IMG/VR virus record: IMGVR_UViG_3300024186_000074
Coordinates: 1-44,943 of that record
Strand: one strand, 5' to 3'
From: a virus
Lineage: Duplodnaviria; Caudoviricetes
Length of the DNA stretch: 44,943 bases
Shown: positions 14,710 to 44,067 of the stretch, piece by piece
How the letters are laid out: each line of letters opens with the position of its first letter
How positions within the stretch are numbered: position 1 is the first letter of the stretch
Notes under the pieces: generated by a model
Seen by the model: only the letters and a program-made list of their open reading frames with translations
Databases searched by the model: none
What the model was told of the DNA's origin: nothing
Made by a program: the position numbers and the translations under genes

Positions 14710-14732
14710 CTAATGTGGCATCCTTAAATAGG

Positions 14733-16997
14733 ATGCTTGCATACACTCTCCTGCTACTTGTTCCGCTCTTGCCCTTGGGGGGTGTGTTTGTGGCTCGGGC
14801 TATCATCCAGAATGACCTGGATAAGCGTAAGACGTACCGCGTGTACTTCCCCACGGATGTCGAACCGGAAGCGGTAGCCGGTTGGCTCCGCACCCTCTCT
14901 GGCACGCTCCGCCCTGAGTCGGCCGTACTGCGGCTGATGCAGGTCTGCCCGAGCATCGTGCTTGAGACCATCTCCATAGAAGGCCTGTTCGTCCACCGGC
15001 TCAAGATTCCCCACCAGTACGAGTCACGCATCCGGCCGCCGCTCGAGCACTTGGTGCCGGGCATCAGCTTGGTACCCGAAGACAACAAGCTGCAGTTCAA
15101 GTGGAAGTACGCCGTAGAGATGGGGATGCGGGGCGCGCACCGGCCGCTCAACATCCCCGACCTCTACCACAAGAGCCACGACTTACTGGCTCGGTTCCAG
15201 CACTTGGCTACCGGCGAAGCGCTCATCATGCAGTGGGTCATCTCGCCGGCCATGCCCGAACGCAAGCCGGTACATGGCGAGTCACAGAGCCTGGAGGGCG
15301 GCGCCTGGTCGTACCTGACCGGCGCACCCGCCGGCCACGATGAAATCAACGCCCGGCGTGACAAGCTCGACGACAACAACCTGAACGCCATCGTGCGCAT
15401 CGGCGCCCAGGCCGGTACCAAGGCCAGGGCACGGCACATGGTGATGGACGTCAAGTCAAGCATCAAGGCTACGGCCGGGTCACAGCAGCACTTCTACGAC
15501 CGCATGGTTGGTTGGGAGGAGCTGCAGCGGCGGATAGACCGGGCGACTAACCCAGCCATGCGGCACATCCGGCTGACCGTAACCGAGATGACCGCGCTCA
15601 TGGGCTGGCGCCTTGGTGATGTGGATATAGCCGGTATGCCGGCACCGCTAGCCCGGCGGTTGGCGGCACCGCGGAGCGTCCTGGATGCAGGACGGGTAAT
15701 CGGGGTGTCTAACTTCTCTGGCCGCGAGCGGAACATCGCCATCGGCCACATGGAGACCCGCTACCACACCTACGTCATCGGACCAACCGGCTTCGGTAAG
15801 ACGACCGAGCTCTACAACATGATGTTCCAGGACATCCGTGACGGGCACGGCATCTTCATGCTGGAGAGCAAGGGCGGCCACGAAGGCTTGTACCAGATGG
15901 CTCTTAACGCCATACCGCCCGAGCGTATCAACGACGTCATCCTGCTCGACCTGACGGACTTCTACCACCCCATCGGGCTCAACGTGCTCGACCAGCTGCA
16001 TGTCTCCATCGACGAACTGGTGGGCGTCCTTAAGGGTCCGCACGGCAGCGGGCCATGGATAGACATGGTATTGCCCGGCGGCATCCGCACGGCACAGGCA
16101 GCCGGACTGACCATCATGGACGTACCGCACCTGCTCATGCCCACCTCTGACGAAGTTACCTGGCGGGACGCCATTGTCCGTAGCCTCAAGAGCGAAGACC
16201 TACGGGCGTTCTGGCAGCGCATCGACAAGGAAGGGAAGTACGGCGGGGAAAAGGTAAGCCAGTCGGCATGGGACAGGCTCCAGCTGCTGGCTAACCGGCC
16301 GGAAATCGGCCACATCCTCGGGCAGGCTAAGTCGTCCTTCAACATGGACGATGTGGTCAGCGGTAAGAAGATACTGCTGGCCAACCTTTCCGGCGTACCC
16401 AAGCAAAGTGCCTCGATGATGGGCACGCTGCTCTTCAACCTCATGACCCAGTCGTTACGCCGGGTGCCGCCGGAAGCTAACCGCTCCATGATGGTCTACC
16501 TGGACGAGTTCCAGCACTTCATGGATATGTCGGTAGACATGCCCGAGATGTTGTCCGAGGTGCGCTCACGCGGCGCGTCGCTCACCATGGCGCACCAGTA
16601 CCTCGGGCAGCTGGACAAGCCGGTAGAGGAGGCCGTCATGGCTAACGCCGGCACCAAGATAGCTTTCCAGCTGAACGCCAGTGACGCCCGCATCATGGCA
16701 GCAAACATCGGGAAGCCGCTGACACCCGAAGACCTGCAGCGGCAAGGCAGGTTCGAGGCCATCGCGAGTGTCTACACGCCGCACGGTAAGAGCGGCCCGC
16801 TAACCATGAACACCCTGGCGCCGACCCAGGGATATGGCTTGGGCATCCACGTGGTTGAGGCGTCCCGCGCCAAGTATGGCCGTCCTATCGAGCAAGTGCA
16901 GGAAGCGATGAAGCAACGGCGCATCGCTGACGTAGTACCCATCCGTAAGCGCCCCATCCGCAAGCTTGAGGACTTCGGTGAGGCAAACAACCAGTAA
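14733..16997 (+). CDS. Type IV coupling protein-like ATPase (VirD4/TraG/TraM-recognition, HerA-FtsK superfamily)
   Basis: N-terminal TM helix, Walker A HTYVIGPTGFGKT, Walker B YLDEFQHF, LSEVRSRG..LTMAHQYLGQL...NAGTKIAF. Confidence 0.85.
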   Translation: MLAYTLLLLVPLLPLGGVFVARAIIQNDLDKRKTYRVYFPTDVEPEAVAGWLRTLSGTLRPESAVLRLMQVCPSIVLETISIEGLFVHRLKIPHQYESRIRPPLEHLVPGISLVPEDNKLQFKWKYAVEMGMRGAHRPLNIPDLYHKSHDLLARFQHLATGEALIMQWVISPAMPERKPVHGESQSLEGGAWSYLTGAPAGHDEINARRDKLDDNNLNAIVRIGAQAGTKARARHMVMDVKSSIKATAGSQQHFYDRMVGWEELQRRIDRATNPAMRHIRLTVTEMTALMGWRLGDVDIAGMPAPLARRLAAPRSVLDAGRVIGVSNFSGRERNIAIGHMETRYHTYVIGPTGFGKTTELYNMMFQDIRDGHGIFMLESKGGHEGLYQMALNAIPPERINDVILLDLTDFYHPIGLNVLDQLHVSIDELVGVLKGPHGSGPWIDMVLPGGIRTAQAAGLTIMDVPHLLMPTSDEVTWRDAIVRSLKSEDLRAFWQRIDKEGKYGGEKVSQSAWDRLQLLANRPEIGHILGQAKSSFNMDDVVSGKKILLANLSGVPKQSASMMGTLLFNLMTQSLRRVPPEANRSMMVYLDEFQHFMDMSVDMPEMLSEVRSRGASLTMAHQYLGQLDKPVEEAVMANAGTKIAFQLNASDARIMAANIGKPLTPEDLQRQGRFEAIASVYTPHGKSGPLTMNTLAPTQGYGLGIHVVEASRAKYGRPIEQVQEAMKQRRIADVVPIRKRPIRKLEDFGEANNQ

Positions 16998-17002
16998 GGA
17001 GC

Positions 17003-17434
17003 GTGGTGGCCGTGGCTACCGGTGTCATCAGTGACCTGTCGGGCAGGCTCGTCCAAGAGCGCGTCCGCCTGGTCGTAAAGCAGCACCCCGACCTCGAACA
17101 AGCCGTGGTGCTGGACATGGATGAGTCTGAGGCTGACGGCATCAAGGGTTCGGCCGGCAACTTCGTCGTGGTGGAGCTGGTGCGCGACGGCGAGGCACCC
17201 GTATCCATGGTGCTCGAGCTCAAGGCGTTCAACGGGCTGTTCAAGGGCGACCCCATCGACGCCTTGGAGTCGGCGCCCAAGGCTAACGGCCTGTTGAGTG
17301 GGGCGGCCAAGCGCGACCCCAACTATCTCCAGGCTGTGAGGGAGTGGGGACGCGCTAATGGGTGGCCAGAACTGAGCGATAGGGGAAGGGTTCCGGCCGC
17401 AGTGGAGAAGGCGTATGGACAAGCAGTCGCCTAA
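17003..17434 (+). CDS. lsr2: Lsr2-family nucleoid-associated protein, paralogue B
   Basis: C-terminal AVREWGRANGWPELSDRGRVPAAVEKAY carries the RGR AT-hook; AAGGAG RBS. Confidence 0.8.
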   Translation: MVAVATGVISDLSGRLVQERVRLVVKQHPDLEQAVVLDMDESEADGIKGSAGNFVVVELVRDGEAPVSMVLELKAFNGLFKGDPIDALESAPKANGLLSGAAKRDPNYLQAVREWGRANGWPELSDRGRVPAAVEKAYGQAVA

Positions 17435-19509: not shown

Positions 19510-19523
19510 GGATGTGTCCTCAT

Positions 19524-19577
19524 AATTAAAGCCCCAGCAGCGAAGCCACTGGGACTGTTTATGCAGGCATAATAGCA
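19524..19577 (-). promoter_or_regulatory. Extended -10 promoter (TGcTATTAT) followed by hairpin and U-rich run (leader copy E)
   Basis: AGTCCCAG..TTCG..CTGGGGCT-TTAATT. Confidence 0.55.
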
Positions 19578-23124: not shown

Positions 23125-23841
23125 CTAGTTGAACCCATGGTACCCCTTGTACCGTTGGTTAACGAAGCGGACGTTTTCTTTCACGAACTCGGCTGCGGGA
23201 TAACCGGCTGCCGTCCAGTCAGCCATAGCCCTGTTCCACGTTTCTTGTGAGACGTGGCCGTCCTTGCCTACCTTGGACTGAAGGTTCTGCGCCGATGTTG
23301 CCATGTCCTGCTGCTTGATTTGTGCCGGCGCAGCTGCTTTGGTCGATTGGCCTACATTGAACTCACGTACCTTCTCGGCCTCTTGCTGTGCGGCCAGCTG
23401 GGCAGCGGCCTTGTCTTGCTCGGTCTTGTACGCCATACCGTATTCGGATTCGAGGTTACTGCGGCCAGCGTTGTAGTCGTTTACCTTGTTTGTGGCCGAG
23501 GTCGTAGCCTGCCCGAGCGCCGTAGTCAAATCCTGCTGGCCCTGGTCCAGGGCGTGGGTCTGGTCGCTCAGCTGGCCGGCTATCGGGGCGCGCTCGTTGG
23601 CTACCTGCTTCTCGCGCTGGGCCTCCGTCACGAGGCTGCCCTGGGTACGGCCGGTTACCGACGGGTCGACGGCGTTCAGAGCGTTAGATGTATTGGTGAC
23701 AGCTGTGCGCAGGCCAGAGACAGTGTTCCGAATCTCGGGTACACCGAACTGCGACAGCGCCGAATTTAGAGCGTCTGTCGAAGTGACCGGGTTGGCGTCA
23801 TAGGTGGCTAACTTTTGGGCGATTGCTGTGCTTGGTTGCAT
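23125..23841 (-). CDS. Putative internal virion / pilot protein
   Basis: Ala/Gln/Thr-rich helical protein. Confidence 0.5.
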   Translation of the reverse strand: MQPSTAIAQKLATYDANPVTSTDALNSALSQFGVPEIRNTVSGLRTAVTNTSNALNAVDPSVTGRTQGSLVTEAQREKQVANERAPIAGQLSDQTHALDQGQQDLTTALGQATTSATNKVNDYNAGRSNLESEYGMAYKTEQDKAAAQLAAQQEAEKVREFNVGQSTKAAAPAQIKQQDMATSAQNLQSKVGKDGHVSQETWNRAMADWTAAGYPAAEFVKENVRFVNQRYKGYHGFN

Positions 23842-23854
23842 GTGGCTTCCTGCA

Positions 23855-23905
23855 TAAAAATAGCTCCCACTAGGGGAGCGTTTAGCTACTAGTGGAAGTA
23901 TACTA
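23855..23905 (-). promoter_or_regulatory. Repeated leader copy A: TATACT-6nt-AGTAGCT-hairpin-U tract
   Basis: Near-identical elements at 28748 and 31757. Confidence 0.75.
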
Positions 23906-23913
23906 CGAGTCCA

Positions 23914-24642
23914 CTACGATGTGCTAGTAACATTGAGGGTGAAGACAGTGTAGTAAATCGTGATAGCCGACGCCGTCACACTACCACCAGTGAAATTGGT
24001 GAACCCTAGACCCAAGTACAGGTTAGTCTGGTCAAACGACAACCACAACTGGAAGAAGGCCTCTCCTGTGGCGTTGTCAAGTTGGACAACACTGTCACCC
24101 ATGCTTACCTGCGTCAACTTGCTTAACGGATACCCCGTCGGTATTACCGGCGAAGATGGGCTGAAGGGGTTGTCGCTTAGGTATTTTTGAGAGAAAAAGC
24201 TTACGTTCGGAACAAAGCCTACGTTGTGGGGAATCGTAACGACGGATGAAGTGGCGTTCGCACCATCGGCAACCGAACCAAGCGACGCAAATGTGTAACT
24301 GCTTTGAAGCGCCACCGTAAAGCTTCTCGTGCTGTTGAACGCGAGTTTGGTTGGGTCGGTGTTCGTAGTGACATCAACACCGGTACGGGTTACGAAAAAC
24401 CCCTCACCAAACGTCGCCTGTTTCCCCATCAGCACTTGCGGCACAGTATCTGCAACGATTATCTGACTATTGCCACCATCTGAATATACCTTGTCACTGC
24501 CAAGCTGCTGTATACCTCGCGTCGTGCCCGTGGCGACTTGTCGCGGGGCCACGCGGTCCGTGCTTGGCGCAACAGGCACATCTGAGATAGTGGCGAAGTC
24601 GTCACTCGGCTGAGCGTCTGCGGGGGCACCCAGCTCGCTCAT
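23914..24642 (-). CDS. Putative tail structural protein
   Basis: Beta-rich; TIPHNVGFVP motif; coupled to the nozzle-like gene. Confidence 0.5.
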   Translation of the reverse strand: MSELGAPADAQPSDDFATISDVPVAPSTDRVAPRQVATGTTRGIQQLGSDKVYSDGGNSQIIVADTVPQVLMGKQATFGEGFFVTRTGVDVTTNTDPTKLAFNSTRSFTVALQSSYTFASLGSVADGANATSSVVTIPHNVGFVPNVSFFSQKYLSDNPFSPSSPVIPTGYPLSKLTQVSMGDSVVQLDNATGEAFFQLWLSFDQTNLYLGLGFTNFTGGSVTASAITIYYTVFTLNVTSTS

Positions 24643-26528
24643 AAGGCAAACTCTGTCTCCCGTGGTTTGTACTCGAGGATGTGGGTGTAGATAGTCGGCG
24701 TGGTCGCGGTGGCACTACACGTGCCGTCAAAACCTGTCACGATGCGCTTGAAGGGGTTCGGGGAGTTCACCGGAGATATCAGCCTCTCAGCACCCGTAGT
24801 GTGGCTCAGGCCGTTTACATAGGCACCACCGTTGATACTCGTGACAACGGTCATCGCTACTCCGGCGGGCAGTGCTGCGGTAACAACACCCACCTTCAGG
24901 GCTAACTTGTCGCGGTGCGCCTGGCCGCCATCGAAGCGACGAGCTCGGAACTTGAATATTGGCGCCGGCGTGCATAGGTTGTCAACAATGTCAAGGCCAT
25001 AGGCACCGTTAGAGTCCTTCCAGCTTATGTACATCTCGTCACCAAAGCTGCGGACGCATCCCAGTTTTATCGAGTTGCCGGTCGGTGTCGTCTGGTGTGA
25101 CGACGCCACATACCCATAGTTGAAACTAGCCGGGTAGTTCTTCTCCAGACTACCCCAGACGTACACCCCGTGCTCGATACCGGTGTTGGTAGTAATCGAC
25201 GGAAACCCGATATGGAGCAGGTTGTCCTTGACGCACAGCATGTTCGGGTAAACCCTCGTGTTGTCGATGACGCCACTAAAGGTGTTATCAAGGCTGGCAA
25301 TCTTGCGGACTTGGATAATCTCTTTACCACCAGCCCAGGCGCAAAGCTTGCCGCTTACGACGAAGTACGGATAGTTCAACAATGTCTCTATGCCCTCGGG
25401 CGCACCGCCAGATACATCGACAATCTGGTTGTAGGTAGTAGCGGTGCCGTCCCATGTAAAGAGTTTGCCGGACTGGAAATCCTTGGTGCCATCAGTGCTG
25501 TACTTGGCGGCTGCGATGACCAGGAACTCGTCTGTCACTGCCAAGCCGCAGACCTCGTAGCCGTCTGGAAAGGTTAAGCGGTGACGTTGGAACTCGTTGT
25601 TGGGCGGGTTGTTATCTGTCAGCGGTTCCCAGACCGCCAGGTAACGGCCATTGCCAATACAGGTGAACTGCTGGAACTGCGCCATCGGATGAAAGCCATT
25701 GGTGGTCTGCACGAACCGGTATGCCCACAGCTCGAAGTCGGCGGTGTTCAGGCTGCCTGACGTACTGCAGGCTACCGTTGTGTCGCCCACCGTGCTAGTC
25801 AGGTGGATGTGGTATGTGCGGGCATTTGGTTTAACAAGCGCACGTATTTGACTGCTGTAGACGAACTCAACAAGGCCGGTAGCCATGTTAGCCGCGGTAA
25901 TGGTCGTGCTAGCTAGTTGGTTGTTTAGGCCGTCATGCAGGGTCAGCGTGACGTTGCCCGTGCCTTTGCTAACGACATTGACCTTGGTGCTGTAAAACGG
26001 CTCGATGTCAGGCTGGAAAGAGATGTATTGGTTCTCGTCTAAGGTGGTGGGGATGGTGTAGGTGGATGCCCCCCCAGTACGGTAAGCAGTGGTAGCCGTG
26101 GACTTGCTCGGCCCATAAGTCACGTCGAACGTCGGTGTGCCGCTCATCGGGTAGTAGCGGCGCAGGTCGGTCTGGGTGGCAAAGTAGCAAGCGTCTGAAT
26201 CTGAGCGGTACAGCGCACCATCACTGCCCGTCGAGAACTTGTTCACATAAGTGAAGGTGTTGTCGGTGGCAATTTTGTAGACGTTGCCCTGGTCGCCGTA
26301 GCCGTAGCGCGTACCGTTGGCAGTCTGAACGATGTTTTGGATTAGGTCGTTCGCCACACCTATTTGCCTCGGTCCTGGCAGTACAGTCAGTTGGGACGGG
26401 TTCTTCCGGTGCTCTAAAGCGCGCGAATAGCTAAAGCTCGCCGGCGTGCCGATGGCTTCATCACTGGACATGCCACCATAGAACTGCTGGATGGGCACGA
26501 AGTGACTTAGATAAGGTATGTATCTCAT
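24639..26528 (-). CDS. Putative tail nozzle / DNA-stabilisation beta-propeller protein
   Basis: 629 aa, beta-rich, FYGGMS N-terminus, follows the adaptor gene. Confidence 0.55.
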   Translation of the reverse strand: MRYIPYLSHFVPIQQFYGGMSSDEAIGTPASFSYSRALEHRKNPSQLTVLPGPRQIGVANDLIQNIVQTANGTRYGYGDQGNVYKIATDNTFTYVNKFSTGSDGALYRSDSDACYFATQTDLRRYYPMSGTPTFDVTYGPSKSTATTAYRTGGASTYTIPTTLDENQYISFQPDIEPFYSTKVNVVSKGTGNVTLTLHDGLNNQLASTTITAANMATGLVEFVYSSQIRALVKPNARTYHIHLTSTVGDTTVACSTSGSLNTADFELWAYRFVQTTNGFHPMAQFQQFTCIGNGRYLAVWEPLTDNNPPNNEFQRHRLTFPDGYEVCGLAVTDEFLVIAAAKYSTDGTKDFQSGKLFTWDGTATTYNQIVDVSGGAPEGIETLLNYPYFVVSGKLCAWAGGKEIIQVRKIASLDNTFSGVIDNTRVYPNMLCVKDNLLHIGFPSITTNTGIEHGVYVWGSLEKNYPASFNYGYVASSHQTTPTGNSIKLGCVRSFGDEMYISWKDSNGAYGLDIVDNLCTPAPIFKFRARRFDGGQAHRDKLALKVGVVTAALPAGVAMTVVTSINGGAYVNGLSHTTGAERLISPVNSPNPFKRIVTGFDGTCSATATTPTIYTHILEYKPRETEFAL

Positions 26529-27418
26529 GGGTACGTAACTGGGGGCGTTAGGTCAATCCAGCTAGGACGGCGGTTGTTATTGCGGCTCTTCACGCCCATA
26601 CGTGAGGTAGACCGCGCGTACGTCTCCTTGGCGCTTTTGACCTTAAGCTCGAACCGCTGGGCGAACAGAGGGGCTGTACGTTGGTCATTCTGAACCATGT
26701 AATACCGCTCGGCCGCGTAGTACACAGGCGCGTCCTGGTAAGCGTTGGGAATCTTCATCACCTCGCCGATGCGGAAACTGCGGCCCGACCCGCTGACCCC
26801 TTCGTAGTAGTTCTCCAGAGTCAGCACACTAGTAGAGGTGTAGGCCGCAATGCGGTACCACTTGCCATCGGTGCCATCTGTGACCTGGAGCCAGCGCCCG
26901 ACCATCTCAGGCAGGAAACCAGTAGCGGAATGCGTAAGCGTCGCCGAACCGTTGGAGACAGTCACCGTACCTGTAGTGAAGTCGTCATGGGTAAGGTCCA
27001 CGTGTTGTGGTTCGAGTGAGACCACCAGGCCGTTAGCTACGGTCGTACTCGGTATTGGATAAAGTCCCACCTCATTAAAGCCGCGGATGTAGTAATGCGT
27101 CGGGTAGTTGCCACTGGTGGAGATGGTGTTCAGTTGATTCCACTCGAGCTCGGATGTCACCAGGACGGGCGTGTAGTAGTTCGTGCCGTTCAGACAGCGA
27201 ATCTCGCTAATGCGGATGGCTTCTGCCGGCAACTGGTAGTATTGCTGGGCAGCGGTCAGCGACGCAGTCATGTATTCCTTGTTGAACTTCCGGCCTAGGC
27301 GGTTCAGGAACATAGCGCCGCCCTCGTTGATGTCACGCTTGAACATGACGAGGCTAGCCGTAGACGTGTCTCCGGTGAGTTGCTGGAGCATTTGGTACTG
27401 GTCCTGAAAGGTGAGCAT
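26525..27418 (-). CDS. Putative head-to-tail adaptor
   Basis: Helical N-terminus, QQYYQLP, PTHYYI..GLYPIPS, IPNAYQDAPVYYAA. Confidence 0.65.
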   Translation of the reverse strand: MLTFQDQYQMLQQLTGDTSTASLVMFKRDINEGGAMFLNRLGRKFNKEYMTASLTAAQQYYQLPAEAIRISEIRCLNGTNYYTPVLVTSELEWNQLNTISTSGNYPTHYYIRGFNEVGLYPIPSTTVANGLVVSLEPQHVDLTHDDFTTGTVTVSNGSATLTHSATGFLPEMVGRWLQVTDGTDGKWYRIAAYTSTSVLTLENYYEGVSGSGRSFRIGEVMKIPNAYQDAPVYYAAERYYMVQNDQRTAPLFAQRFELKVKSAKETYARSTSRMGVKSRNNNRRPSWIDLTPPVTYP

Positions 27419-27420
27419 GG

Positions 27421-28308
27421 CTAAACCTTATATTCGATTATTTGCATAGTGGACAGCGTGATGCCACCAAACTTACGGGCGCCAGCGAATCCATTAAACG
27501 TAGCCGTGGCAGCAGACACAGGGCCGGCTCTAAACCTAAACGTAGTCGAGGACGTCGTACCTGAAACCATGTCATGTTCTATCAGTAGATTCACCATACC
27601 GCTGGCAGCATTGACAGTAATATCTTGCGCTGCAAGGGCGTTGGCTGTGGCGTCCTGGAATAGCGCACCTATGATATCGTTCGTAGCAGCACTCTGGGAA
27701 AGAAAGGCTTTTACTCTTATATAGAGGTGGTTTGTTGCGCTCTTGGGAGTGATTGCTAGCGTCATGAACTCGGTTCCCTCAGTAATCTGGGGGATTGTGT
27801 CGTCTTCGGGGATAAGTGTGGTCCCGGTCGCCACGGCCGTGAAGTTGCTGTTAACCATCTGTACGGGTACACCAGTGGCCAATTGACTGCTGCCCACGGT
27901 ACCGGCAGTTAGGTTCGCACCACTCATGAAGCCACTCTTGATGTTCACGCCGCCAATAGTCGTGCCATTGCCGGGAGTACTCTCGTTAATGGTGTCAATC
28001 TTCGGTGTGACAAGGGTAGGAGAGGTGCCGAACACGGCAAGACCGCTACCGGTCTCGTCGGACAGGCTGGCGGCCAGCTGGGCACTCGTGAGCTGCGTCC
28101 AGGCGCTCGTGCCCGTGCCGGTGCCAAACAGCAGCGTACTGACTACTGGCGTGCTAGAGCCTGTGCCCACTTTCGCCTCCATGGCTTTAATCGAATCGTT
28201 GGCGTTCGCGTGCTGGCTAGCGTGGTGCGGGCTGGTAGGCGCATCGCCGGCGGCCGGGTTAGGCAGCGTCGAGTTGTTGTCAAGCGAACCAGGGAAGTTG
28301 GTAGCCAT
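27421..28308 (-). CDS. Putative tail fibre / spike protein
   Basis: MATNFPGSLD start; SDETGSGLAVFGTSPTLVTP; beta-rich C-terminal domain. Confidence 0.6.
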   Translation of the reverse strand: MATNFPGSLDNNSTLPNPAAGDAPTSPHHASQHANANDSIKAMEAKVGTGSSTPVVSTLLFGTGTGTSAWTQLTSAQLAASLSDETGSGLAVFGTSPTLVTPKIDTINESTPGNGTTIGGVNIKSGFMSGANLTAGTVGSSQLATGVPVQMVNSNFTAVATGTTLIPEDDTIPQITEGTEFMTLAITPKSATNHLYIRVKAFLSQSAATNDIIGALFQDATANALAAQDITVNAASGMVNLLIEHDMVSGTTSSTTFRFRAGPVSAATATFNGFAGARKFGGITLSTMQIIEYKV

Positions 28309-28478
28309 TACGCAGCGCTCCAGACGGTCGGTGTCTTATCGCTGGCAGGGCTCTCCGTCGTGTCCTGGTTGCCGTCGTAGTGGCTGTAGATAGTGTTGTA
28401 CGTCACGCCAGTAGGTTCATACGTGTCTGTGCTGACAGATGACGGGTTGGGAGTCCACCGAGTCGGAACTTTGGTCAT
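28308..28478 (-). CDS. Small virion-associated protein (56 aa, MTKVPTRWTPNP...)
   Basis: GGGGA RBS; TAATG coupling to the next gene; below ORF-track cutoff. Confidence 0.6.
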   Translation of the reverse strand: MTKVPTRWTPNPSSVSTDTYEPTGVTYNTIYSHYDGNQDTTESPASDKTPTVWSAA

Positions 28479-28480
28479 GG

Positions 28481-28723
28481 TTAAGTCCCCTGATGGCTAA
28501 GCGCGCTTACCGTCACATCTTCGGTGGACGCGTTGACTACCGTTACCGAGCCAGTGAAGCCGTAGTAGCGTTTGCTGGTGACGCCTGTACTAGCCGCTAT
28601 GACCGCCACAGTGGTGCCGCCATCAGCGATGGTGAGTGTGCCAGTTAGGGCCTTGTTTATCTCGACCAGGATGCCGTAGGTCTTGCCGATTGTGGTAGTG
28701 GCCGCGGTGGTGATGTAGTTCGT
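28481..28723 (-). CDS. Small beta-rich virion protein with apparent ACG start (NYITTAATTTIGKTYGILVEINKALTGTLTI...)
   Basis: 81-codon open frame fills the gap exactly; GAGGA RBS 7 nt before ACG; no in-frame ATG/GTG/TTG between the leader terminator and this position. Confidence 0.6.
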   Translation of the reverse strand, partial: TNYITTAATTTIGKTYGILVEINKALTGTLTIADGGTTVAVIAASTGVTSKRYYGFTGSVTVVNASTEDVTVSALSHQGT

Positions 28724-28747
28724 GGTGCTATCCTCGCTTTCTGAACA

Positions 28748-28796
28748 TAAAAATAGCCCCCGTAAGGGAGCTGTTGAAGCTACTGAGTGGATTATA
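28748..28796 (-). promoter_or_regulatory. Repeated leader copy B: TATAAT-6nt-AGTAGCT-hairpin-U tract
   Basis: Same architecture as copies A and C. Confidence 0.75.
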
Positions 28797-28798
28797 TA

Positions 28799-29722
28799 TC
28801 AGGAGCCTACACCAAGCAATGTTAGGTTGTGGGCGGTCACTGGAGCAGTGGTGCTGTTTTTGAACCCGACAGAGTAATAGGTGTTCGTGTTGGCATTAGT
28901 GTTCGCGCTAGTACCCACCTGAAAGCCGTCAGACCCGAAGTTCTGGATGATGTTGGCCGCCTCGCCGGTAGCTGTCATCAGGTACGCGTTATCGCCAGAC
29001 TCGGTAGAGAACCGTACGGCCATTGCGTCTGTAGTAGTGTCCTTGTCCCATACGCAGTCGGGCTGGAAGCCCATGCCCGTGATGTCGCGGTTGTCGCTGC
29101 CGTTGCCTGTGTAGGTAATCGGCTTGAAAAGGCTGGCTGTGGTGTCGATGACCGCATAGTAATAGTTACGCCCCGTACCGTTTACTTCGTTGCGGAAGCT
29201 AAGCGTGAAGCCATCGGAATCCAGAGACAGGATACGGTCCGTCAGTTGCGCGCCGGCATTATAGGGCAGATAGCTGTCAGTCGCCATGTCACTCGTGCGA
29301 TAGCCACCGGTGTCGCCGAGGTCGTCCCATATGAATAGGCCGTCTGGAGCGAAGCCAATACCCGTGAACGCTCGCGGGCCAGTAGAGTTGCCGGCATACG
29401 TACCCGTCTTGAATGAACCTCCCGTAGTGTCGGTAATCGCAAGGTAGTGGTAGACCGTAGTGTTGTTATTAACCTTGGCGTCCGTTCCAAGCGTGAAGCC
29501 ATCAGAATCATAAGAGCTCAGGCGACCGGTTGCCGGAGTTGCGCCGGTAATATCCTGCATCTTCGTCGAGCCCATCTCTGATGTTCCGACTTGTGCCAGA
29601 TTCGAGCCGCCCTTGATAAGGAGCATCGTGTGGCTACCAGAGTTCATCGCGAACCCGAGCCCTGTTATGGATTTTGCTGACCCCGTCCCTGTGTATGTAC
29701 CGACCTTTATTTTCAGCGCCAC
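28799..29722 (-). CDS. Virion protein with three internal repeats (YTGxG...ITGxGF.PD...DGF.LG)
   Basis: Three ~100-aa repeats visible in the translation. Confidence 0.65.
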   Translation of the reverse strand: MALKIKVGTYTGTGSAKSITGLGFAMNSGSHTMLLIKGGSNLAQVGTSEMGSTKMQDITGATPATGRLSSYDSDGFTLGTDAKVNNNTTVYHYLAITDTTGGSFKTGTYAGNSTGPRAFTGIGFAPDGLFIWDDLGDTGGYRTSDMATDSYLPYNAGAQLTDRILSLDSDGFTLSFRNEVNGTGRNYYYAVIDTTASLFKPITYTGNGSDNRDITGMGFQPDCVWDKDTTTDAMAVRFSTESGDNAYLMTATGEAANIIQNFGSDGFQVGTSANTNANTNTYYSVGFKNSTTAPVTAHNLTLLGVGS

Positions 29723-29731
29723 AACGACACC

Positions 29732-31756
29732 CTACTTGTAGTAAAAGTTGACATCACAGGTCGCACCGGTTGAACCCGTCCTAGTGGTGGTGCATGCGTA
29801 GGAAATGGCGGTCCCAAAGGGAATGCCCTTATCGATATTCAGGGTAACGCCGCCGGATGCAGGTATGCCAATAGATATGTCTGGGACGGTTGTGCCCAAG
29901 GTCACTGAACCAGAGGCCACGTTGAATAGTTGCACGTAGGCCGCGGCGGCGGTGGTGTTAAATAAGTGGTACGCGTATAGCTGCCCGGCTGAGGCTTTTA
30001 TAGAGGTGGCTGTACCGCCTGTAGAAGCACTCTTGATAGATAGGCCGCCAGAGGTAGCAGGAGTATCAGTGACGAGCCACGGTGTGCTGTTGGCGGTGTT
30101 CCCCGGCTGGACTGTCCATGTGCCGGACTGGGAAGCGGGTACTACATCATCGGTAGCTATAGTCACACGTTGTGTACCGGCCGAGCGCGTACCGGTGTTC
30201 ATGGCTATGGCTGCGCCGTTCATCTGGGTAAGACTCGTTACGGTTGAGACCGTAGACATTGCGCCGGTACCGTTGTTGGCCAGTTCTACGCGTAATGCAC
30301 CAGTAGCAGTGCCGGAGCCGGTCGTGGCGTAACTGACCGGCTGTGTAGTGGCCGAACCGTCTACTGTGAGGGCATTGCCTGCAGTGACATTGACACCACG
30401 CTCATTCCCTGCTGCATCTCGGATAGTGGAGTACTGGTTTCGGTTCGCTGACATCCTCACAAATCCGAAACTGTTCTCTGTAATCGCGGTAGGGGATACG
30501 TCATCGAACACGGCCGCCATCGCAGAGTTCACGCCGCTATTGGCCGATGCACTGTTCATCGTACTAACGGGTACGGTGGCAGATGAGGTAGTAACAGAAC
30601 CGATGGCTGCAGAACCAGCAGCTAATGCAATCTGCCCCGTGGAATCAGAAGCTACAGTTACCCGAAGCGCGGTGGTGCTGGCAGTACCGTTACCGGTAGC
30701 AGCGGCATTAGTTCCAAAAGATGTGATGTTCGTATTGGTCGCTTGGATTGTCGGGGAATGCGGAAGGGAGAAGTGTATGGTGCCGGCATAGCTACCTGCA
30801 GCCAGGCTAGCGACACTTATTCGGAAGTATCGTGCATTTAATGGCCCGGCGTATATACCGGTGGCGTTGGCACTAGTGGCTGGGGCGCTGTTTCCCGTTG
30901 CCCCGACGCTAGAGAGTGAAATGGAAACCCATGTTGAGTTGTCGTTCGATGCTTGGAAGGTGCCGACACCGCTCGTACCAACGCTCGTGACTTGTACGGA
31001 TACGAAGCCGTAGTTCCCCGCATCAGTTGCACCTACGGTCGTGTTCGAGCTCGTCGTAAAGGTAACTGGCAGATAAGCTGCACCCACAAGCGCGGCGTTC
31101 TGGCCAGCCGCGGTGCCGTCCGACTTCAGGACATTAGCTACGTTGGTGCCATCAGTCAGCTTCGCCTGTTGAGTGCCGCCGGTCAGCGTTGCATCGAGCG
31201 CCAGGCCGTTGGTCGTACCCATATTCGCGGTCACGGTGCCCGACACCGGTTGAGGGGTGCCAGAAGCCACGCCTTGAACAGATATAACATCGGTCGAGGG
31301 ACTACCGGCGGTTCCAAGAGCCGGCTGTTTGGCCGCGGTGGCAGCACCAGTCGGTAATGCCGAGCTTGCCACAGTCACAGCACCCGTGTTCACAGCCGTA
31401 ATCTTGCCGTCGATGCTCGCCAGGCTTGTGTTGCCCGTGTCCTGTTTGGCAGAGGTGGCCAGGCCGGTAGTGTCGACGGTAGCTGAAGTTGGCAAAGGAT
31501 TGGCCGATGAGACGGCCGTGATGGTACCGGCCTTATCGAAGACGGGTATGGTGCCTACGGGATGGGCAACCGTAGCGGCGCCATCGGTGTACTGGACGTC
31601 ACTGCCACCGCCTCCACCAGAGCCAGACGTAAGCATGGCGCCTGTAGTCGGGTCAACCTCCACTGGTACCGGGGTAGTGCCGTCGGTTGAACTGACGCCT
31701 ATGAGCGTCGGCACTCGGTTTTGGTCGTGTGAGGCGTTGGTTCGTGGTGCTGGCAT
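29732..31756 (-). CDS. Large Thr/Ala/Gly/Ser-rich virion fibre or decoration protein
   Basis: Low-complexity repeats (ATSAKQ/ATAAKQ, LRVTVASD/LRVELAN/QRVTIATD). Confidence 0.6.
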   Translation of the reverse strand: MPAPRTNASHDQNRVPTLIGVSSTDGTTPVPVEVDPTTGAMLTSGSGGGGGSDVQYTDGAATVAHPVGTIPVFDKAGTITAVSSANPLPTSATVDTTGLATSAKQDTGNTSLASIDGKITAVNTGAVTVASSALPTGAATAAKQPALGTAGSPSTDVISVQGVASGTPQPVSGTVTANMGTTNGLALDATLTGGTQQAKLTDGTNVANVLKSDGTAAGQNAALVGAAYLPVTFTTSSNTTVGATDAGNYGFVSVQVTSVGTSGVGTFQASNDNSTWVSISLSSVGATGNSAPATSANATGIYAGPLNARYFRISVASLAAGSYAGTIHFSLPHSPTIQATNTNITSFGTNAAATGNGTASTTALRVTVASDSTGQIALAAGSAAIGSVTTSSATVPVSTMNSASANSGVNSAMAAVFDDVSPTAITENSFGFVRMSANRNQYSTIRDAAGNERGVNVTAGNALTVDGSATTQPVSYATTGSGTATGALRVELANNGTGAMSTVSTVTSLTQMNGAAIAMNTGTRSAGTQRVTIATDDVVPASQSGTWTVQPGNTANSTPWLVTDTPATSGGLSIKSASTGGTATSIKASAGQLYAYHLFNTTAAAAYVQLFNVASGSVTLGTTVPDISIGIPASGGVTLNIDKGIPFGTAISYACTTTRTGSTGATCDVNFYYK

Positions 31757-31806
31757 ATAAAAAAGCTCCCGCTAGGGGAGCTGCTTAAGCTACTAGTCCT
31801 ATCATA
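31757..31806 (-). promoter_or_regulatory. Repeated leader copy C: TATGAT-6nt-AGTAGCT-hairpin-U tract, abutting the ATG
   Basis: Same architecture as copies A and B. Confidence 0.75.
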
Positions 31807-31811
31807 CGATA

Positions 31812-32675
31812 CTAGCCAGCATTCTCCAAGATGCCTCCCTTGCGCTTGAGACGGAGTTCTGCATCGGCAATTAGGGCCTCACGCTCAATGAGCGACTGCT
31901 CCTTGGCCGCCAGCGCCTTCCTGGCCGTCGATTCATACTGCAGAAACTCAGTATGCTTGCCTTCTACAGATGCCACGGCGGTTTTGCGAGTCTCGAGTTC
32001 TGCAGTCACGTCCTCAAGCTCCGCACGCTTGGCAGCGTGCTTCGTGTCGAGCTCCTGGACTTGCCGTTCTGTTTCAGCATGTTTGCCGGCCAGTTTGTCA
32101 GCCTCGGAAGCTATCTCAGCCTGCTTCTGCACGATTTCAGCGTCCAGGTCGGCTAGAATGCGCTTCCTGGCCTCAATGCCCGCCAGAATGGCTGTATTGT
32201 CGTCAGCGAGCGTCTTGTTTAGGGTCTTGAGACGGTCGGTCTCTAGCCGGCATTCATCCACGGCAGCTTGCGCCTTTGCCACACACCCGTCTTGTTCTGC
32301 CCTCGTGGCCTCAAGAGTGCTTTCCGCGGCCTCGATTGATTGCCTGAGTGTTCCGAGTTCCACGGCCAAGTCATTGAGCGTAGTTTCGTGCTCGGCAATC
32401 TGCTCGGCCCGGGTATGGGCCTTCTCATCACTTTCGACCTGCGACTTATCCCGCTGCTGTTCCAGGTCCTTGATGGACTGCTGCAGGAATTTCACTCTGG
32501 CTGATAGTGTAATGCAGTCTTGCGAGAGACTTTGCTTACTCGCTTCGAGTTTGACCACCTGGTCGTCGATGGCCTCGGCCTTTGCGAGTAGTTCCCTAAG
32601 CTCCGGCAGGACGGCCACTTGAAGCCTTCGGCGTAAAGCTCTTACCCGTTCCAGGGGCTGGCGGTTCGGTGTCAA
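31812..32675 (-). CDS. Coiled-coil protein (true start probably near 32618)
   Basis: Heptad-rich E/A/K/L sequence. Confidence 0.6.
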   Translation of the reverse strand: MTPNRQPLERVRALRRRLQVAVLPELRELLAKAEAIDDQVVKLEASKQSLSQDCITLSARVKFLQQSIKDLEQQRDKSQVESDEKAHTRAEQIAEHETTLNDLAVELGTLRQSIEAAESTLEATRAEQDGCVAKAQAAVDECRLETDRLKTLNKTLADDNTAILAGIEARKRILADLDAEIVQKQAEIASEADKLAGKHAETERQVQELDTKHAAKRAELEDVTAELETRKTAVASVEGKHTEFLQYESTARKALAAKEQSLIEREALIADAELRLKRKGGILENAG

Positions 32676-32985: not shown

Positions 32986-33027
32986 GCTTTTAAGCTCCTT
33001 ATGTTATGCGCTCATAATAGCATAACC

Positions 33028-33060
33028 AAAACAAAACCCCCGACGCGCGGGGGTTGTTTG
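33028..33060 (-). terminator. Intrinsic terminator after the capsid operon
   Basis: AACCCCCG-loop-CGGGGGTT followed by TTGTTTT on the minus strand. Confidence 0.75.
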
Positions 33061-35494: not shown

Positions 35495-35560
35495 GTTCTT
35501 TCTCTCCTTACGTGATTGATTTAGGTTATCAATCTCCGCAAGGGGAGGAGTTTAAAGCAT

Positions 35561-35612
35561 GAAAAACAGCCCCCTTGCGGAGGCTGCTTGATGAACCATT
35601 GACTGCATAATA
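35561..35612 (-). promoter_or_regulatory. Leader copy D before the major capsid gene: TATTAT-6nt-AATGGTT...CAGCCTCC-GCAA-GGGGGCTG-TTTTT
   Basis: -10 box at 35607-35612 and GNRA-loop terminator hairpin. Confidence 0.7.
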
Positions 35613-35643
35613 GCCGAAAGGCTGGGCTAATACAAGGACATTC

Positions 35644-36496: not shown

Positions 36497-38491
36497 TTAC
36501 TGAACTGGTTTAGGTGCAGCCCCTCGCTGCGGTGGCTGGCCTGGCGCTCCAGGTTGCATTGGTGGCGGTGGCGCACTGTTAGCCGCGTCTACCTGCATGT
36601 TGTGGGCTGCTACGTCCTGTGGGGTTGGCAGCTGTGTCTCAGCCATGCCAAGCATCTTCTGGCCACGGGCTAGCTGGATATCTATGAACTGGCTAATTAC
36701 CTGGCGCGTCATGATGTCGATATTCGGGTTCTCGAGGTCGCCGCTCAGCACGTAGTGGTTCAGGTAGTCGAAGTACTCCTTGCTCAGCTCGTCACGGTAC
36801 GGCGGCTGCTGGCCGGCCTTAAGCATCTGGATGTCCACGTAGGCGTCGCGGTCAAAGACTTCTTCTTGGGTATCCTGTAAGAAACCGGTAGGATTGGCCG
36901 TCCAGTCAGCCACGCGCTTGGCGTACTTTTGCGCGTTAGGCTCATCCATGATTTCCCAGTAGGTCAGCGGGTCAATCATCATAGATGCGGCAGCCTTGTC
37001 AGCGGTAGCGCGGCGCTGCGGATTGTCGATAGGCATGGATGTGCCGGCCTTAATCTGCATCTCAGCGTTCACGTCTAATTCATCGGTGTGCATGATGACG
37101 TAGTCGAACTCGGCGTTCTCACCTACGAACTTGAACAACTCCTGCTCCTGGCCGTAGACGAACAGGAACTGCGCCACCAGTGGGTAGAGCCGCGCCATGC
37201 CTACGTCTATGGCATCCACAATCTCTTGCTGGCGGCCTACAGACTGGTCACGTAGCAGCTCGTCCTGGCCGAGCGTCTTGTTGTCGGATTCGTTGCCCTG
37301 GTTCACGTTGGAGGCGCCAAAGGTGTTCTGTACGCCTTCTACGGCATCCTGCTTGTCCTTGTAGACATCGGGGGAGAGTGTGCCGGCCTTCCAGGTGGTG
37401 AAGACGTCATTGATGCTCTGCTTGCCAGCATTGCTGACGTCGAGCTCCAAGACGGTGTCTGGCTCAAACTGCACGTACTCGGCTTGGTCGTCAGCCAGGG
37501 CGGCCGCGTCCACTACAGGCATCCCGATGTTGCCCAGGCCGGCGTTCACGCCTATCTGCCGCCCACGCTGGTCTATGGTGCTCTGCAGATACTTAGCCTG
37601 CTCTACGAAGCTGGTGCGGTCTATGTGGGTACGGCCGTCAGCCAACACGTTGAACTCAATGAGCGGCATCTGGGGGTAGTCGATGAAGTTCTGCTTGCCC
37701 GGTAGCCAGTTAGGGTTGGGTACAGCACCAAAGCACACCTTGTTGTAAGACCAACTACATATGAGGTCTAAGCCATCATCACCCGGTACGAAACACCAGT
37801 CCTCGTGTATCTGGTAGGACTTCTGCATGTCGGCCCGAGGCGAGTTTTCGTCCAACTGGAAGGTATCAAGTATCTTCGCCTTCATGTCAGGGAACATGGT
37901 AATGAGGTCTTCGGGCGTCTTGTCCAGCACATGCCGGAAGTACCGTAGTTCCTCGTCGGTGCGGGCCTTGTGGTCAACGATGATGGACTCTGCCGGCACG
38001 TACTCGATAGCGCAGAAGTTCTTCTTAACCGCGTCGTAGCGCAGTTTGAGGTAGCCGCGGCGCCGTATGATGGCATCTTCCAGCGCGAACTTTACCTTGC
38101 GCTTCAGATTCTGCTTCTTTACGTGGATGTACAGCGCCTTTTCGATGTCCTCGGCAAAGCGCTTAGCCTCTTCTGATGTGCTGCTAGGTGCACCTTCGGG
38201 CTCGGTAATACGGCTGGTTACGTACGGCACGATGGTGCGTATGGAGCTAAAGATGCGGTTGTCAAGCGACAGGTTCTTGTCCTGGCTGTCATCTAAGTCA
38301 GAGACTTGCTTGCCGAAGTAGTACCGCTCGTTGGCCTTGGTGGTCTTCTCAAGCTCGTAGTCTTTGCCATCCCAGAAGCCCTTAGACTCGCCTATGCGAC
38401 GGTCCATCATCTCTACTAGCTGGTCACCCGTCATGCCCGCGATATTCACGGTCGGGTAGTCCTGTTTAGCTGGAGTCGAGGATTTAGCCAT
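36497..38491 (-). CDS. Portal protein
   Basis: 664 aa; DNRIFSSIRTIVP and IKAGTSMP motifs; Pro/Gln-rich tail; upstream of scaffold and capsid. Confidence 0.8.
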   Translation of the reverse strand: MAKSSTPAKQDYPTVNIAGMTGDQLVEMMDRRIGESKGFWDGKDYELEKTTKANERYYFGKQVSDLDDSQDKNLSLDNRIFSSIRTIVPYVTSRITEPEGAPSSTSEEAKRFAEDIEKALYIHVKKQNLKRKVKFALEDAIIRRRGYLKLRYDAVKKNFCAIEYVPAESIIVDHKARTDEELRYFRHVLDKTPEDLITMFPDMKAKILDTFQLDENSPRADMQKSYQIHEDWCFVPGDDGLDLICSWSYNKVCFGAVPNPNWLPGKQNFIDYPQMPLIEFNVLADGRTHIDRTSFVEQAKYLQSTIDQRGRQIGVNAGLGNIGMPVVDAAALADDQAEYVQFEPDTVLELDVSNAGKQSINDVFTTWKAGTLSPDVYKDKQDAVEGVQNTFGASNVNQGNESDNKTLGQDELLRDQSVGRQQEIVDAIDVGMARLYPLVAQFLFVYGQEQELFKFVGENAEFDYVIMHTDELDVNAEMQIKAGTSMPIDNPQRRATADKAAASMMIDPLTYWEIMDEPNAQKYAKRVADWTANPTGFLQDTQEEVFDRDAYVDIQMLKAGQQPPYRDELSKEYFDYLNHYVLSGDLENPNIDIMTRQVISQFIDIQLARGQKMLGMAETQLPTPQDVAAHNMQVDAANSAPPPPMQPGAPGQPPQRGAAPKPVQ

Positions 38492-38516
38492 GGTTTAAGT
38501 GAATTGTAGCACAGTG

Positions 38517-38813
38517 CTAGAGCTTGCGACGCAAATCCTCAAGCTCCTCGGGCGTGAATACCTTTTTGGCAGTGTCAGGGTACAAACGTAGGAACTCCAC
38601 ATTGGGGCCAACCGCGTTGTACGGCTGGATGGTGTCTTGGGCGTTGTCTTCATAGCCGCGGCGCCGTTCATAGCTGGCAGCGCCCGAGCTAAGCGTCTCA
38701 CCGCCTAAGCAGCCTTGGCAGATGCGGCTGTAGTACTTGCCGTTGACGACTGCCGCGCGGCAGTGTGGCTTAGTCTGTTTGCAACTCTGGCACTTCATTG
38801 CCCAACTCTTCAC
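38517..38813 (-). CDS. Hypothetical protein with CxxC pairs
   Basis: CQSC...CQGC. Confidence 0.6.
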   Translation of the reverse strand: MKSWAMKCQSCKQTKPHCRAAVVNGKYYSRICQGCLGGETLSSGAASYERRRGYEDNAQDTIQPYNAVGPNVEFLRLYPDTAKKVFTPEELEDLRRKL

Positions 38814-38997: not shown

Positions 38998-39220
38998 CTT
39001 CGGTGGCCTCCTGGGCTTCTTTAATCTTGCGTAGCTGCTTGGGCATGACCTTCACGACCCGGCCACCTTGATACGAGTCGTGTGGCCGGTATGTAGGTGC
39101 CTTGGTATGCGTGATGAAGCGGCCGCGGCTAGCATGCGGGTTCTCGACAGGCTCTACCGGAACCTCAACGACTGGCCGCCACCAAGCCCTAAGCCGCTCT
39201 AGCAGGTTCTTCATCTTCAA
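38969..39220 (-). CDS. Hypothetical protein
   Basis: Overlapping ORF in the operon. Confidence 0.5.
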   Translation of the reverse strand: MKMKNLLERLRAWWRPVVEVPVEPVENPHASRGRFITHTKAPTYRPHDSYQGGRVVKVMPKQLRKIKEAQEATEDETSVTQLP

Positions 39221-40799
39221 CGTCCGTGATTATCGCGCCCATGGTAAGTAGCGAACCAGCAATGCTGAACGCATTCTTAACTGCCTGGGTGACTACCTTG
39301 GTGGCGTCGACTATGCCAGCTTCGACCAGGTCGACAGGCTCGGTAGTCATCTGCCGTAGGTTGTAGCCCATGCCGTAGCCAGCTTCTAGCGTCTTGTTCA
39401 GGTACAAGCCAGCGTCCTCGCCGGCGTTGCTCATGAGCAGGCGGAAAGGCTGTTGAAGGGCTTCTTTAACGAATGCTTCCAAGGCGGGAACTTCGTCATT
39501 GCCAGAAGCAGATAGGGCTGCCTGGTGGCGCAGCGTGCTAGCGAACAGCAACGTGGTAGCACCACCGGCCACGATGCCGCTGCTTAGAGCGCTCTTACAT
39601 GCCTCTACAGCGTCTTCAACCCTGAAGAACAGCTCTTCGCGTTCGCTCTCGGTAGCTGCACCGACCTTGATGATGCTGACTTTGCCGGCAAGCTTGGCCT
39701 TGCGCTCGTCCAGCTGCTCCTTGAGGCTTGGTGTAACGTCGCTAGCGGCTAGTTGGCCCTCAATCTCGGCAATACGGCTAGCTATAGCGTCACCAGTGCT
39801 GTTGTCACCGAACAAGATTGCCTTGTCCCGGTTGACACGTGAGCCTTTAATGGTGCCAAAATCTTCGAGCTTCACGTCTTTAAAGCTGTCGCCTTCGAGC
39901 ACCAGCGTGGCGCCAGTGTAGGTAGCGATGTCTACGAAGAAGTCGTGGCCATCTGCACCGAAGGCTGGCGGGGGGATAGCCATACCGTCAGCCTTGCCGT
40001 TCTGGATAGCCCATACGAGCGTCTCTAGGGCTGCGCCGGCCACATCACCGACGATGATGAATTGCCTGTTATTCTGAGCCATCAGCTCGAGTACGGGGAT
40101 GATGTCAGTCTTGGTAGCCATGCGCTTCTGGGTAACGAGCACAAGGGGAGCTTCAAACTCCACCTCTTGTGACAGCACACGGAAACCGTTGTTAAACAGG
40201 TAGCCAGTAACTTTCTCGACCTGGACGTTGGGAGCGTTGTGGTAGGTAATGGTGATAGCACCGTCTGCGCCTACATCCCACACCAAATCACTTACCATCT
40301 CGCCCAGCGCCTCGTCAGTGGAACTGATGACGGCTACCTGGCGCAGCTTGTCTTTGGTGCACTCCACCGATTTGCTCTCTACGAACTTCAGGATGGTTTC
40401 ACGGTCTCTGTCCAGCGCACGCTTGATGACCATAGGGTCTTCGCCTGCCACGATGCGGCGGTAGCCAGCCTTGTACAACTCGGCCAGGAGCACGACCGTA
40501 GCCGTGGTGCCGTCGCCGGCGGTTTTGTTGGTCTTCTCGCTAGCCTGGTAGACCAGCTTGGCAGCCTCACGAGCTATTGGGTTAGGTAGCTTGTTGCCGT
40601 ACCCAGCAATGTCGCGAGCTACGGTTACACCATCACGAGTAAGTATCGGGTGCACGTACTTCTTCTGTATGAGCACGTTACGGCCACCAGGGCCATATGT
40701 ACTGCCTACAGCCTTGCGCATTGTTTCAACGCCCTTGGCGATGTCTACGTGGGCTACTTCATCAAAGGTCACCTCTTTAGTTCGGTCTTTTGCTTCCAT
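39189..40799 (-). CDS. groEL: Chaperonin GroEL (phage-encoded, divergent)
   Basis: TYGPGGRNV, TRDGVTVA, AGDGTTAT, IKVGAATESE, RVEDAV and GIVAGG motifs; no GGM tail. Confidence 0.95.
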   Translation of the reverse strand: MEAKDRTKEVTFDEVAHVDIAKGVETMRKAVGSTYGPGGRNVLIQKKYVHPILTRDGVTVARDIAGYGNKLPNPIAREAAKLVYQASEKTNKTAGDGTTATVVLLAELYKAGYRRIVAGEDPMVIKRALDRDRETILKFVESKSVECTKDKLRQVAVISSTDEALGEMVSDLVWDVGADGAITITYHNAPNVQVEKVTGYLFNNGFRVLSQEVEFEAPLVLVTQKRMATKTDIIPVLELMAQNNRQFIIVGDVAGAALETLVWAIQNGKADGMAIPPPAFGADGHDFFVDIATYTGATLVLEGDSFKDVKLEDFGTIKGSRVNRDKAILFGDNSTGDAIASRIAEIEGQLAASDVTPSLKEQLDERKAKLAGKVSIIKVGAATESEREELFFRVEDAVEACKSALSSGIVAGGATTLLFASTLRHQAALSASGNDEVPALEAFVKEALQQPFRLLMSNAGEDAGLYLNKTLEAGYGMGYNLRQMTTEPVDLVEAGIVDATKVVTQAVKNAFSIAGSLLTMGAIITDVEDEEPARAA

Positions 40800-44038: not shown

Positions 44039-44067
44039 ACCCCTACTATACTCCACTAGGCAATAGT

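Follow-up and report, generated by a model that had tools for sequence, protein, structure and literature searches.

We analysed the soil virus record IMGVR_UViG_3300024186_000074 (called the window below: the whole record of 44,943 bases, with repeated ends), and found that its late genes are repeatedly preceded by a compact cassette in which a promoter, a short leader and a terminator hairpin with a U tract follow each other directly. These cassettes, or gates, are probably late-gene switches that terminate by default and are read through when an RNA-binding protein of the phage, for which a Com-like zinc-ribbon protein is the best candidate, stabilises a mini-hairpin (P0) at the 5' end of the leader. 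The original prediction on this DNA had already read three of the cassettes as attenuation or antitermination gates of late genes. Their promoter anatomy, adjacent terminator, repetition from module to module and wide conservation argue for such a gate and against chance, but the alternative fold that had been proposed with it was not supported.

Cassettes in front of the late genes

All late genes of the window lie on the minus strand, and so do the features given below unless stated otherwise. Cassettes A (23855-23902), B (28748-28819) and C (31757-31829) had been reported before, and their positions and letters were confirmed. The -10 boxes are TATACT (23897-23902), TATAAT (28791-28796) and TATGAT (31801-31806), and the heptamer AGTAGCT begins 6 nucleotides (nt) past each of them, as had been noticed, at the predicted +1 of 23890, 28784 and 31794. 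Cassette D (35561-35635), with the -10 TATTAT at 35607-35612 and a predicted +1 at 35600, lies before the major capsid gene, and the weaker cassette E (19522-19577), with a TG-extended -10 TATTAT at 19569-19574, lies before a small lysis-side gene. No -35 had been seen earlier, but B, C and D carry TTG-starting -35-like hexamers at exactly 17 nt (TTGCTT at 28814-28819, TTGGAG at 31824-31829, and TTGTAT), and only A lacks both a -35 and a TG extension. The terminators of A (stem 23863-23879), B (28755-28772) and C (31764-31782) are each followed by a U tract; that of D has -18.6 kcal/mol, and the U tract of E is poor.

AGTAGCT alone is not enriched in the window (10 matches vs 6.9 expected; 17 of 100 shuffles reach 10). 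Combined with a GCYCCY..RGGRGC hairpin it was observed three times and in none of 200 shuffles. A loose -10 followed by AGTAGCT was also observed three times, with a mean of 0.195 and a maximum of 3 in 200 shuffles. Scanning for promoters followed by a hairpin and U tract, without use of the motif, gave six hits in the window vs 0 in eight shuffles, and these were A, B, C, D, E and one before the replication gene. The exact window pattern had 0 matches in viral contigs, and ten unrelated viral matches to the promoter-plus-box pattern, read by eye, had no terminator. An Rfam scan of the window gave two weak matches elsewhere (E up to 1) and none on the cassettes.

Conservation in related phages

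The only relatives of the phage with annotation are DolZOral124_53_65, a phage of Saccharibacteria (TM7) with identities of 39.8% for the capsid and 27.8% for the portal, and one phage from Manatee Spring, and the host is therefore probably a Saccharibacterium. Searches with the capsid recovered three complete close genomes and, at approximately 45% capsid identity, a second clade. From late-strand intergenic hits, 36 cassettes in 13 records were chosen by hand, 23 of the window type and 13 of the second clade; cassette E, a two-way terminator of G001, and any hits on the other strand or beyond the late regions were omitted. The -10 was TG-extended in 29 of the 36 copies, and a TTG -35 at 16-18 nt was present in 13 (background windows 0-3), including 6 of the 7 copies without TG extension, which means that 35 copies had at least one of these two sigma70 features and only A of the window had none. 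The leader begins 6-8 nt past the -10 with AGC, AAC, AGT, AAT or ATC (one of the first four in 35 of 36), and this spacing is also the one at which leaderless small terminase (terS) genes put their ATG. The terminator was the best predicted fold in 35 of 36 copies, at least 6 U in 8 nt were present in 34, and the predicted terminated products were 29-50 nt long (median 36). Two gates of G002 (L002:14706 and L002:20387) carry a second hairpin, or a second 3' arm plus U tract, in tandem. We found no description of the element in the open-access literature, though such leaders may be listed in the motif catalogues that supplement screens for structured RNAs of viruses.

A mini-hairpin at the 5' end of the leader

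Leader nucleotides 4-7 (the box) pair with a 4-mer 3-8 nt downstream, and this P0 hairpin had 137 of 144 pairs in the 36 copies, 29 of which were complete. In the window, the box of A (23884-23887) pairs with 23877-23880 at three of four positions, the mini-hairpins of B (28769-28781) and C (31779-31791) have all four pairs, and that of D (35582-35597) is GGUU/AGCC. The other types were AGCU/AGCU, AACU/AGUU, GACU/AGUC, GGUU/GACC, AACC/GGUU, AGCC/GGCU, GGCU/AGCU, GACU/AGUU and others, with compensatory changes between copies. When boxes were permuted among the 13 unique box/partner types, the observed 48 of 52 pairs compared with a mean of 41.4 (p 5e-5), and the two clades taken apart gave p values of 0.0036 and 0.007, relatedness being ignored by these permutations. 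Sliding the box by 1-3 nt left 0 complete hairpins. The G-U pairs and the loops of 3-8 nt point to P0 acting as an RNA structure.

The original prediction had paired the 5' AGUAGCU with the 3' arm of the terminator. This fold is possible in A, B and D, but it is complete in only 11 of the 23 window-type copies and as a conserved alternative it fails where the box is AACU or GGAA, whereas P0, in which the box pairs with the 4-mer after it, is complete in 18 of the 23 and has three of four pairs in the rest. In the window-type topology the partner strand of P0 forms the base of the 5' arm of the terminator; second-clade boxes are themselves this 5' arm, with the partner at the terminator top, and in both topologies P0 and the terminator are mutually exclusive. 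The mini-hairpin of E (19544-19556) has the second topology and lies 3 nt farther out than usual. The second-clade copies found after the idea of P0 had been noted were complete in 11 of 11 cases; one of them had come from a permissive pattern, four from a selection on hairpin and U tract only, and six from a scanner favouring paired registers. In 7 of these 11 most of the partner strand stays free of pairing in the predicted terminator fold, so terminator pairing does not account for the P0 complementarity. A portal search gave 79 loci in 27 clusters, and by eye, most clusters showing the region have a gate before the capsid gene, with a 3-4-bp P0 of one or the other topology. Whole records of distant relatives also had repeated gates with 3-bp versions of P0, seven in G424, six in G419 and six in G418, and one G419 copy showed a compensatory change from A-U to U-A.

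A zinc-ribbon protein as candidate factor

The computed energy of P0 is +0.6 to -4.5 kcal/mol, about -2 compared with -8 to -19 for the terminator, and forcing P0 over the terminator fold costs 1.7-16 kcal/mol (median 7.7). Because P0 is too weak alone against the terminator, we infer that a stabilising factor is required. The candidate is the product of the gene at 41778-42287, a protein of 169 amino acids (aa) with two tandem CxxC..CxxC zinc-ribbon domains whose family aligns with Mu Com; that this Com-like protein is the factor which opens the gates seems to us slightly short of an even chance. The gene overlaps the end of terL and lies downstream of the small terminase promoter (44036-44050), which is ungated and predicted to be leaderless (-10, 6 nt, ATG), and which is predicted to drive terS-terL together with the zinc-ribbon gene. 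The same ungated leaderless arrangement was found in G001 and G005.

The protein had 55 near-length homologues and contains two copies of a 77-aa CxxC..CxxC domain, and the second clade has a single-domain version with 45 homologues (26 representatives at 50% identity). The gene was present in 4 of 4 window-type genomes in tandem form and in 5 of 5 second-clade loci covering the region in single form; after iteration it was found in 39 of the 79 portal-related loci, of which many do not extend over the place of the gene. In the Manatee Spring phage it was found by the iterated profile (E 2e-7), and this phage has one gate, with an unclear P0, before its capsid gene. The broad family alignment matched Mu Com with an HH probability of 91.9% over 34 columns, and none of 73 other two-CxxC peptides used as control matched Com as highly (best 51%); a weak match to PHROG gpCom was found for 1 of 27 family members. 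The single-domain homodimer model scored 0.42 vs 0.01 for the best control (runs 0.00, 0.50 and 0.42). With contacts agreeing in at least 26% and a predicted local distance difference test (pLDDT) of at least 47, it narrowly passes a mark that was reached by 20 of 30 solved homodimers and 1 of 23 monomers. Such a predicted homodimer would fit with the tandem form, and is silent on RNA binding. The pLDDT was 67 for the tandem-protein model and 55 for the single-domain model; the fold search with the tandem model gave no Foldseek match at E 0.001 (best VIA Z 3.6), and searches of Atlas, PDB sequences, NCBIfam and INPHARED were uninformative.

The zinc domain occurs in 10 of 22 whole records, several of which supplied the alignment, and the complete or near-complete genomes G409, G412, G414, G415 and the TM7 phage had neither a zinc-domain hit nor repeated gates. 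With about one loss event and two exceptions, the co-occurrence of gates and zinc gene is only suggestive. A second zinc protein (38517-38813; 94-98 aa) lies before the portal gene and is kept in gate-less relatives; it was rejected as the factor, since the 98-aa protein is present in the gate-less TM7 phage too. An oral-type clade without the zinc gene (L149:7831 and relatives) has one conserved promoter-hairpin-U element with a possible displaced mini-hairpin.

Proposed mechanism and alternative explanations

In the mechanism that we propose, host sigma70 RNA polymerase would initiate 6-7 nt past the -10, a start site predicted from the consensus anatomy and from the leaderless terS genes that share the spacing. 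The first 15 nt or so would then fold as P0, with the structure coming from covariation and its folding in the cell being presumed. Unaided, the terminator would be favoured by the computed median of 7.7 kcal/mol and an RNA of approximately 36 nt would be released, and by computation the gate hairpin would also terminate transcripts arriving from the upstream module. Expressed from the ungated terS promoter, the zinc-ribbon protein would attach to P0, either as a dimer or as a tandem pseudo-dimer, and would let polymerase through to the capsid, tail and lysis-side genes. In its full form, a Com-like zinc-ribbon dimer binds the 15-nt 5' hairpin and flips terminators at up to seven promoters in probable Saccharibacteria phages, and leader topology and domain number (tandem or single) changed together between the clades; this form is put forward tentatively, as one that we would sooner expect to need correction than to hold throughout.

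Several points weigh against this mechanism. P0 is worth only +0.6 to -4.5 kcal/mol, and both of its strands are RRYY-like, so some pairing is expected from composition; besides the disregard of relatedness in the permutations, the 36 copies were hand-picked and the later scanner prefers well-paired registers. The Com match is short, PF10122 was found in 3 of 27 members with a best E of 0.0017, below the Pfam cut-off, and other zinc-ribbon families match as many members in Pfam. Com is known as a translational, not a transcriptional, activator. The portal gene and a 129-aa gene are gated in some relatives and ungated in others. All gate-less genomes, G411 included, fall in one portal clade of a quick tree, so the co-occurrence rests on about one loss. 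There are also exceptions: in G418 six gates occur with no zinc-domain hit, G411 lacks repeated gates although it has a divergent zinc gene, and L086 has the zinc gene and an ungated portal. For G418, a 51-aa zinc protein located behind the portal is a weak candidate factor (HH 4.7%). The host assignment is only probable, and the early region has Lsr2-like, GntR and relaxase genes.

The gates could instead be opened by a polymerase-binding factor of the Q, Xp10 P7 or gp39 type, in which case P0 would only signal pausing or loading close to the exit channel. A weak hairpin whose end lies at +15 could serve as a pause hairpin, and lambda Q is described as having a zinc ribbon. A promoter with an immediate terminator is the lambdoid late design as presented in PMC7547250, and P7 is described as plugging the RNA exit channel and in this way bypassing terminators that precede late genes (PMC6624301). 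However, a processive factor would need no gate and mini-hairpin in every module, nor would P0 then have to overlap the terminator in both topologies, and no Q family was among the PHROGs hits of 64 open reading frames (ORFs), in line with the original prediction, which had recognised no Q-like antiterminator. The lambda Q analogy drawn at that time is weakened in one respect, that a DNA-loaded factor of the Q type fits less well than an RNA-binding factor, and we consider a polymerase-binding factor unlikely, though it deserves to be kept in mind.

Translational control as in Mu com/mom, in which the big hairpin hides the ribosome site and a Com-like protein opens it via P0, is a little less likely again. 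Com is a translational activator by the account in PMC6483171, the 3' arm of cassette C carries GGGAG 8-9 nt before the start codon, and 11 of the 36 copies, C among them, have no separate ribosome site past the U tract. But a stem that hides the ribosome site in all copies was rejected, since 25 of the 36 possess a separate ribosome site beyond the U tract, at a distance of tens of bases in the capsid leaders, and 34 of the 36 keep the at least 6 U in 8 that translational control does not need. In C and the 10 other copies that lack such a site, translation may be affected, either on top of termination or in its place.

It is quite improbable that the gates are protein-free leaky attenuators, whose hairpin ends the upstream transcript while P0 passes a fixed share of local starts and so sets dosage. 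The position of gates immediately after upstream stop codons, the different gating of a given gene among relatives, and the gated G418 without a recognisable factor would suit this explanation. Yet P0, at 1.7-16 kcal/mol worse than the terminator, is too weak as a lasting trap, and the conserved unpaired 5' ARY suggests recognition. There is very little to expect from the idea that the terminated 30-50-nt RNAs are themselves the product, as small RNAs or decoys: a terminated late leader of a Shiga-toxin phage is reported as a regulatory RNA (PMC7547250), but here the loops vary freely, Rfam has no match on the cassettes, and all copies stand before late genes, essential ones such as those for portal and capsid included. 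That box and partner make up a palindromic operator on the DNA, to be bound by a repressor, can practically be dismissed, for although the inverted repeats AGCT-N4-AGCT and AACT-N4-AGTT do span +4 to +16, the spacer varies from 3 to 8 nt, the half-sites are diverse and G-T "pairs" are frequent.

Comparison with known systems

The element is likely a new variant of protein-dependent RNA antitermination for phage late timing. It resembles the BglG/LicT switch in its working and lambdoid pR'-tR' in its purpose, and it is a member of neither, because no CAT domain was found, there are many promoters, and no Q family turned up among the PHROGs hits. CAT and PRD domains were absent from a Pfam scan of 20 proteins including the candidate (a subset of the window ORFs) and from the 27 family members. 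As described in PMC5393181, the BglG/SacY/LicT (CAT-RAT) systems also have a weak leader hairpin that overlaps and excludes an intrinsic terminator, and a small dimeric RNA-binding domain that captures this hairpin; the RAT hairpin bound by LicT must be captured before the overlapping terminator is completed. Unlike CAT-RAT, the phage hairpin has 3-4 bp within the first 15-20 nt, occurs in two topologies and is repeated up to seven times per genome. Another kind of antitermination, with ANTAR proteins and dual hairpins, uses very short protein-stabilised stems that exclude a terminator and needs two hairpins with six-base loops, whereas the phage gate has one hairpin, at the 5' end.

Mu Com, by the account in PMC6483171, is a CCCC zinc finger of related pattern which acts in late phage expression and binds a short hairpin adjoining a stronger inhibitory stem; melting of this stem by Com has been proposed. 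Unlike what is suggested here for the phage family, Com serves a single target, whose translation it activates. The family also differs from Com by an insertion of approximately 19 residues between the knuckles, by an N-terminal strand and by its tandem form, and its predicted targets, unlike com/mom, end in U tracts and in most cases (25 of 36) hide no start site. In lambdoid pR'-tR'/Q, Xp10 P7 (PMC6624301) and P23-45 gp39, a host-type late promoter is silenced by a nearby intrinsic terminator up to the moment when a protein of the phage intervenes, and there one or few late promoters are served by a polymerase-binding factor, whereas here many short gates would be governed by competing RNA structure.

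The known phage late switches use a factor loaded on polymerase (Q, P7, gp39), promoter activation or a change of sigma factor. If the proposed mechanism is true, a repeated leader-specific RNA switch of the sugar-operon type, worked by a Com-like finger, would be an additional late strategy, a function would be given to an unannotated family of at least 100 proteins, the leaders would be among the smallest protein-controlled antiterminator RNAs, and the Com fold would be able to act on transcription termination. It would also provide a first regulatory circuit open to testing for the phages of Saccharibacteria, which can hardly be cultured. It is compact, with approximately 40 nt and one 85-aa protein, comes in natural variants of sequence, and could be tested with a sigma70 reporter in a laboratory host.

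Surrounding genes, other promoters and the phage genome

Gates A, B and C stand directly downstream of the stop codon of the preceding gene. The gene after A (23125-23841) encodes 238 aa and has its own AGGA site, and the gene after C, which starts with the ATG at 31756 and encodes 674 aa, has no separate ribosome site. Behind B, the gene (28481-28735) has a GAGGA site at 28731-28735 and an 80-codon frame with an ACG start at 28723, and its homologues sit downstream of cassettes in G002, G003 and G005. A frameshift or assembly error behind B was ruled out by this ACG start with its own ribosome site and by a separate assembly, possibly of the same sample, in which the sequence after B is identical. 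An ATG directly after the U tract of B (28481-28750) opens a six-codon frame that terminates on the GAGGA site, and a comparable out-of-frame ATG is present after A. In all five window-type capsid leaders (window 35550-35562, G001, G002, G003 and L030) the U tract is followed by CATGCTT and then by 50-60 further bases with another hairpin.

The late promoters of the window comprise five gated and at least three ungated ones. The portal promoter (38489-38508) is ungated in the window and gated in G001-G003, and the promoter of the 129-aa gene (33003-33055) has the ordinary order of terminator and then promoter, and is gated in G002 and L025. At 5430-5489 a promoter, a long hairpin and a U-rich tract precede the replication-initiator gene, with a leader unlike the late gates. 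The capsid promoters of G004, G005, L026, L028, L029 and L032 have a near-consensus -35 and a deviant -10, and the major capsid start codon in these six is TTG or GTG.

The window is a complete temperate phage, encoding a serine integrase, terminase, portal, capsid, a GroEL-like chaperonin and short-tail-type virion genes. The box pattern and the capsid profile were each found in 0 of 401 genomes of a Daviesbacteria phylum sample, no capsid relatives were found in GTDB contigs, and 44 pattern matches in GTDB had no correctly positioned -10 or related phage genes, so these searches gave no host link. No tRNA or tmRNA was found in the window. GroEL-like and GroES-like genes lie between terminase and portal in all close relatives (39189-41747 in the window), and in the window an HNH gene is inserted in this chaperonin region. 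The genes for a replication-relaxation protein, a coupling-protein-like ATPase, and Lsr2-like and GntR proteins (2963-3859, 14613-17434 on the plus strand, and 12023-12235 on the minus strand) are missing in close relatives and resemble cargo from an integrative element of another group.

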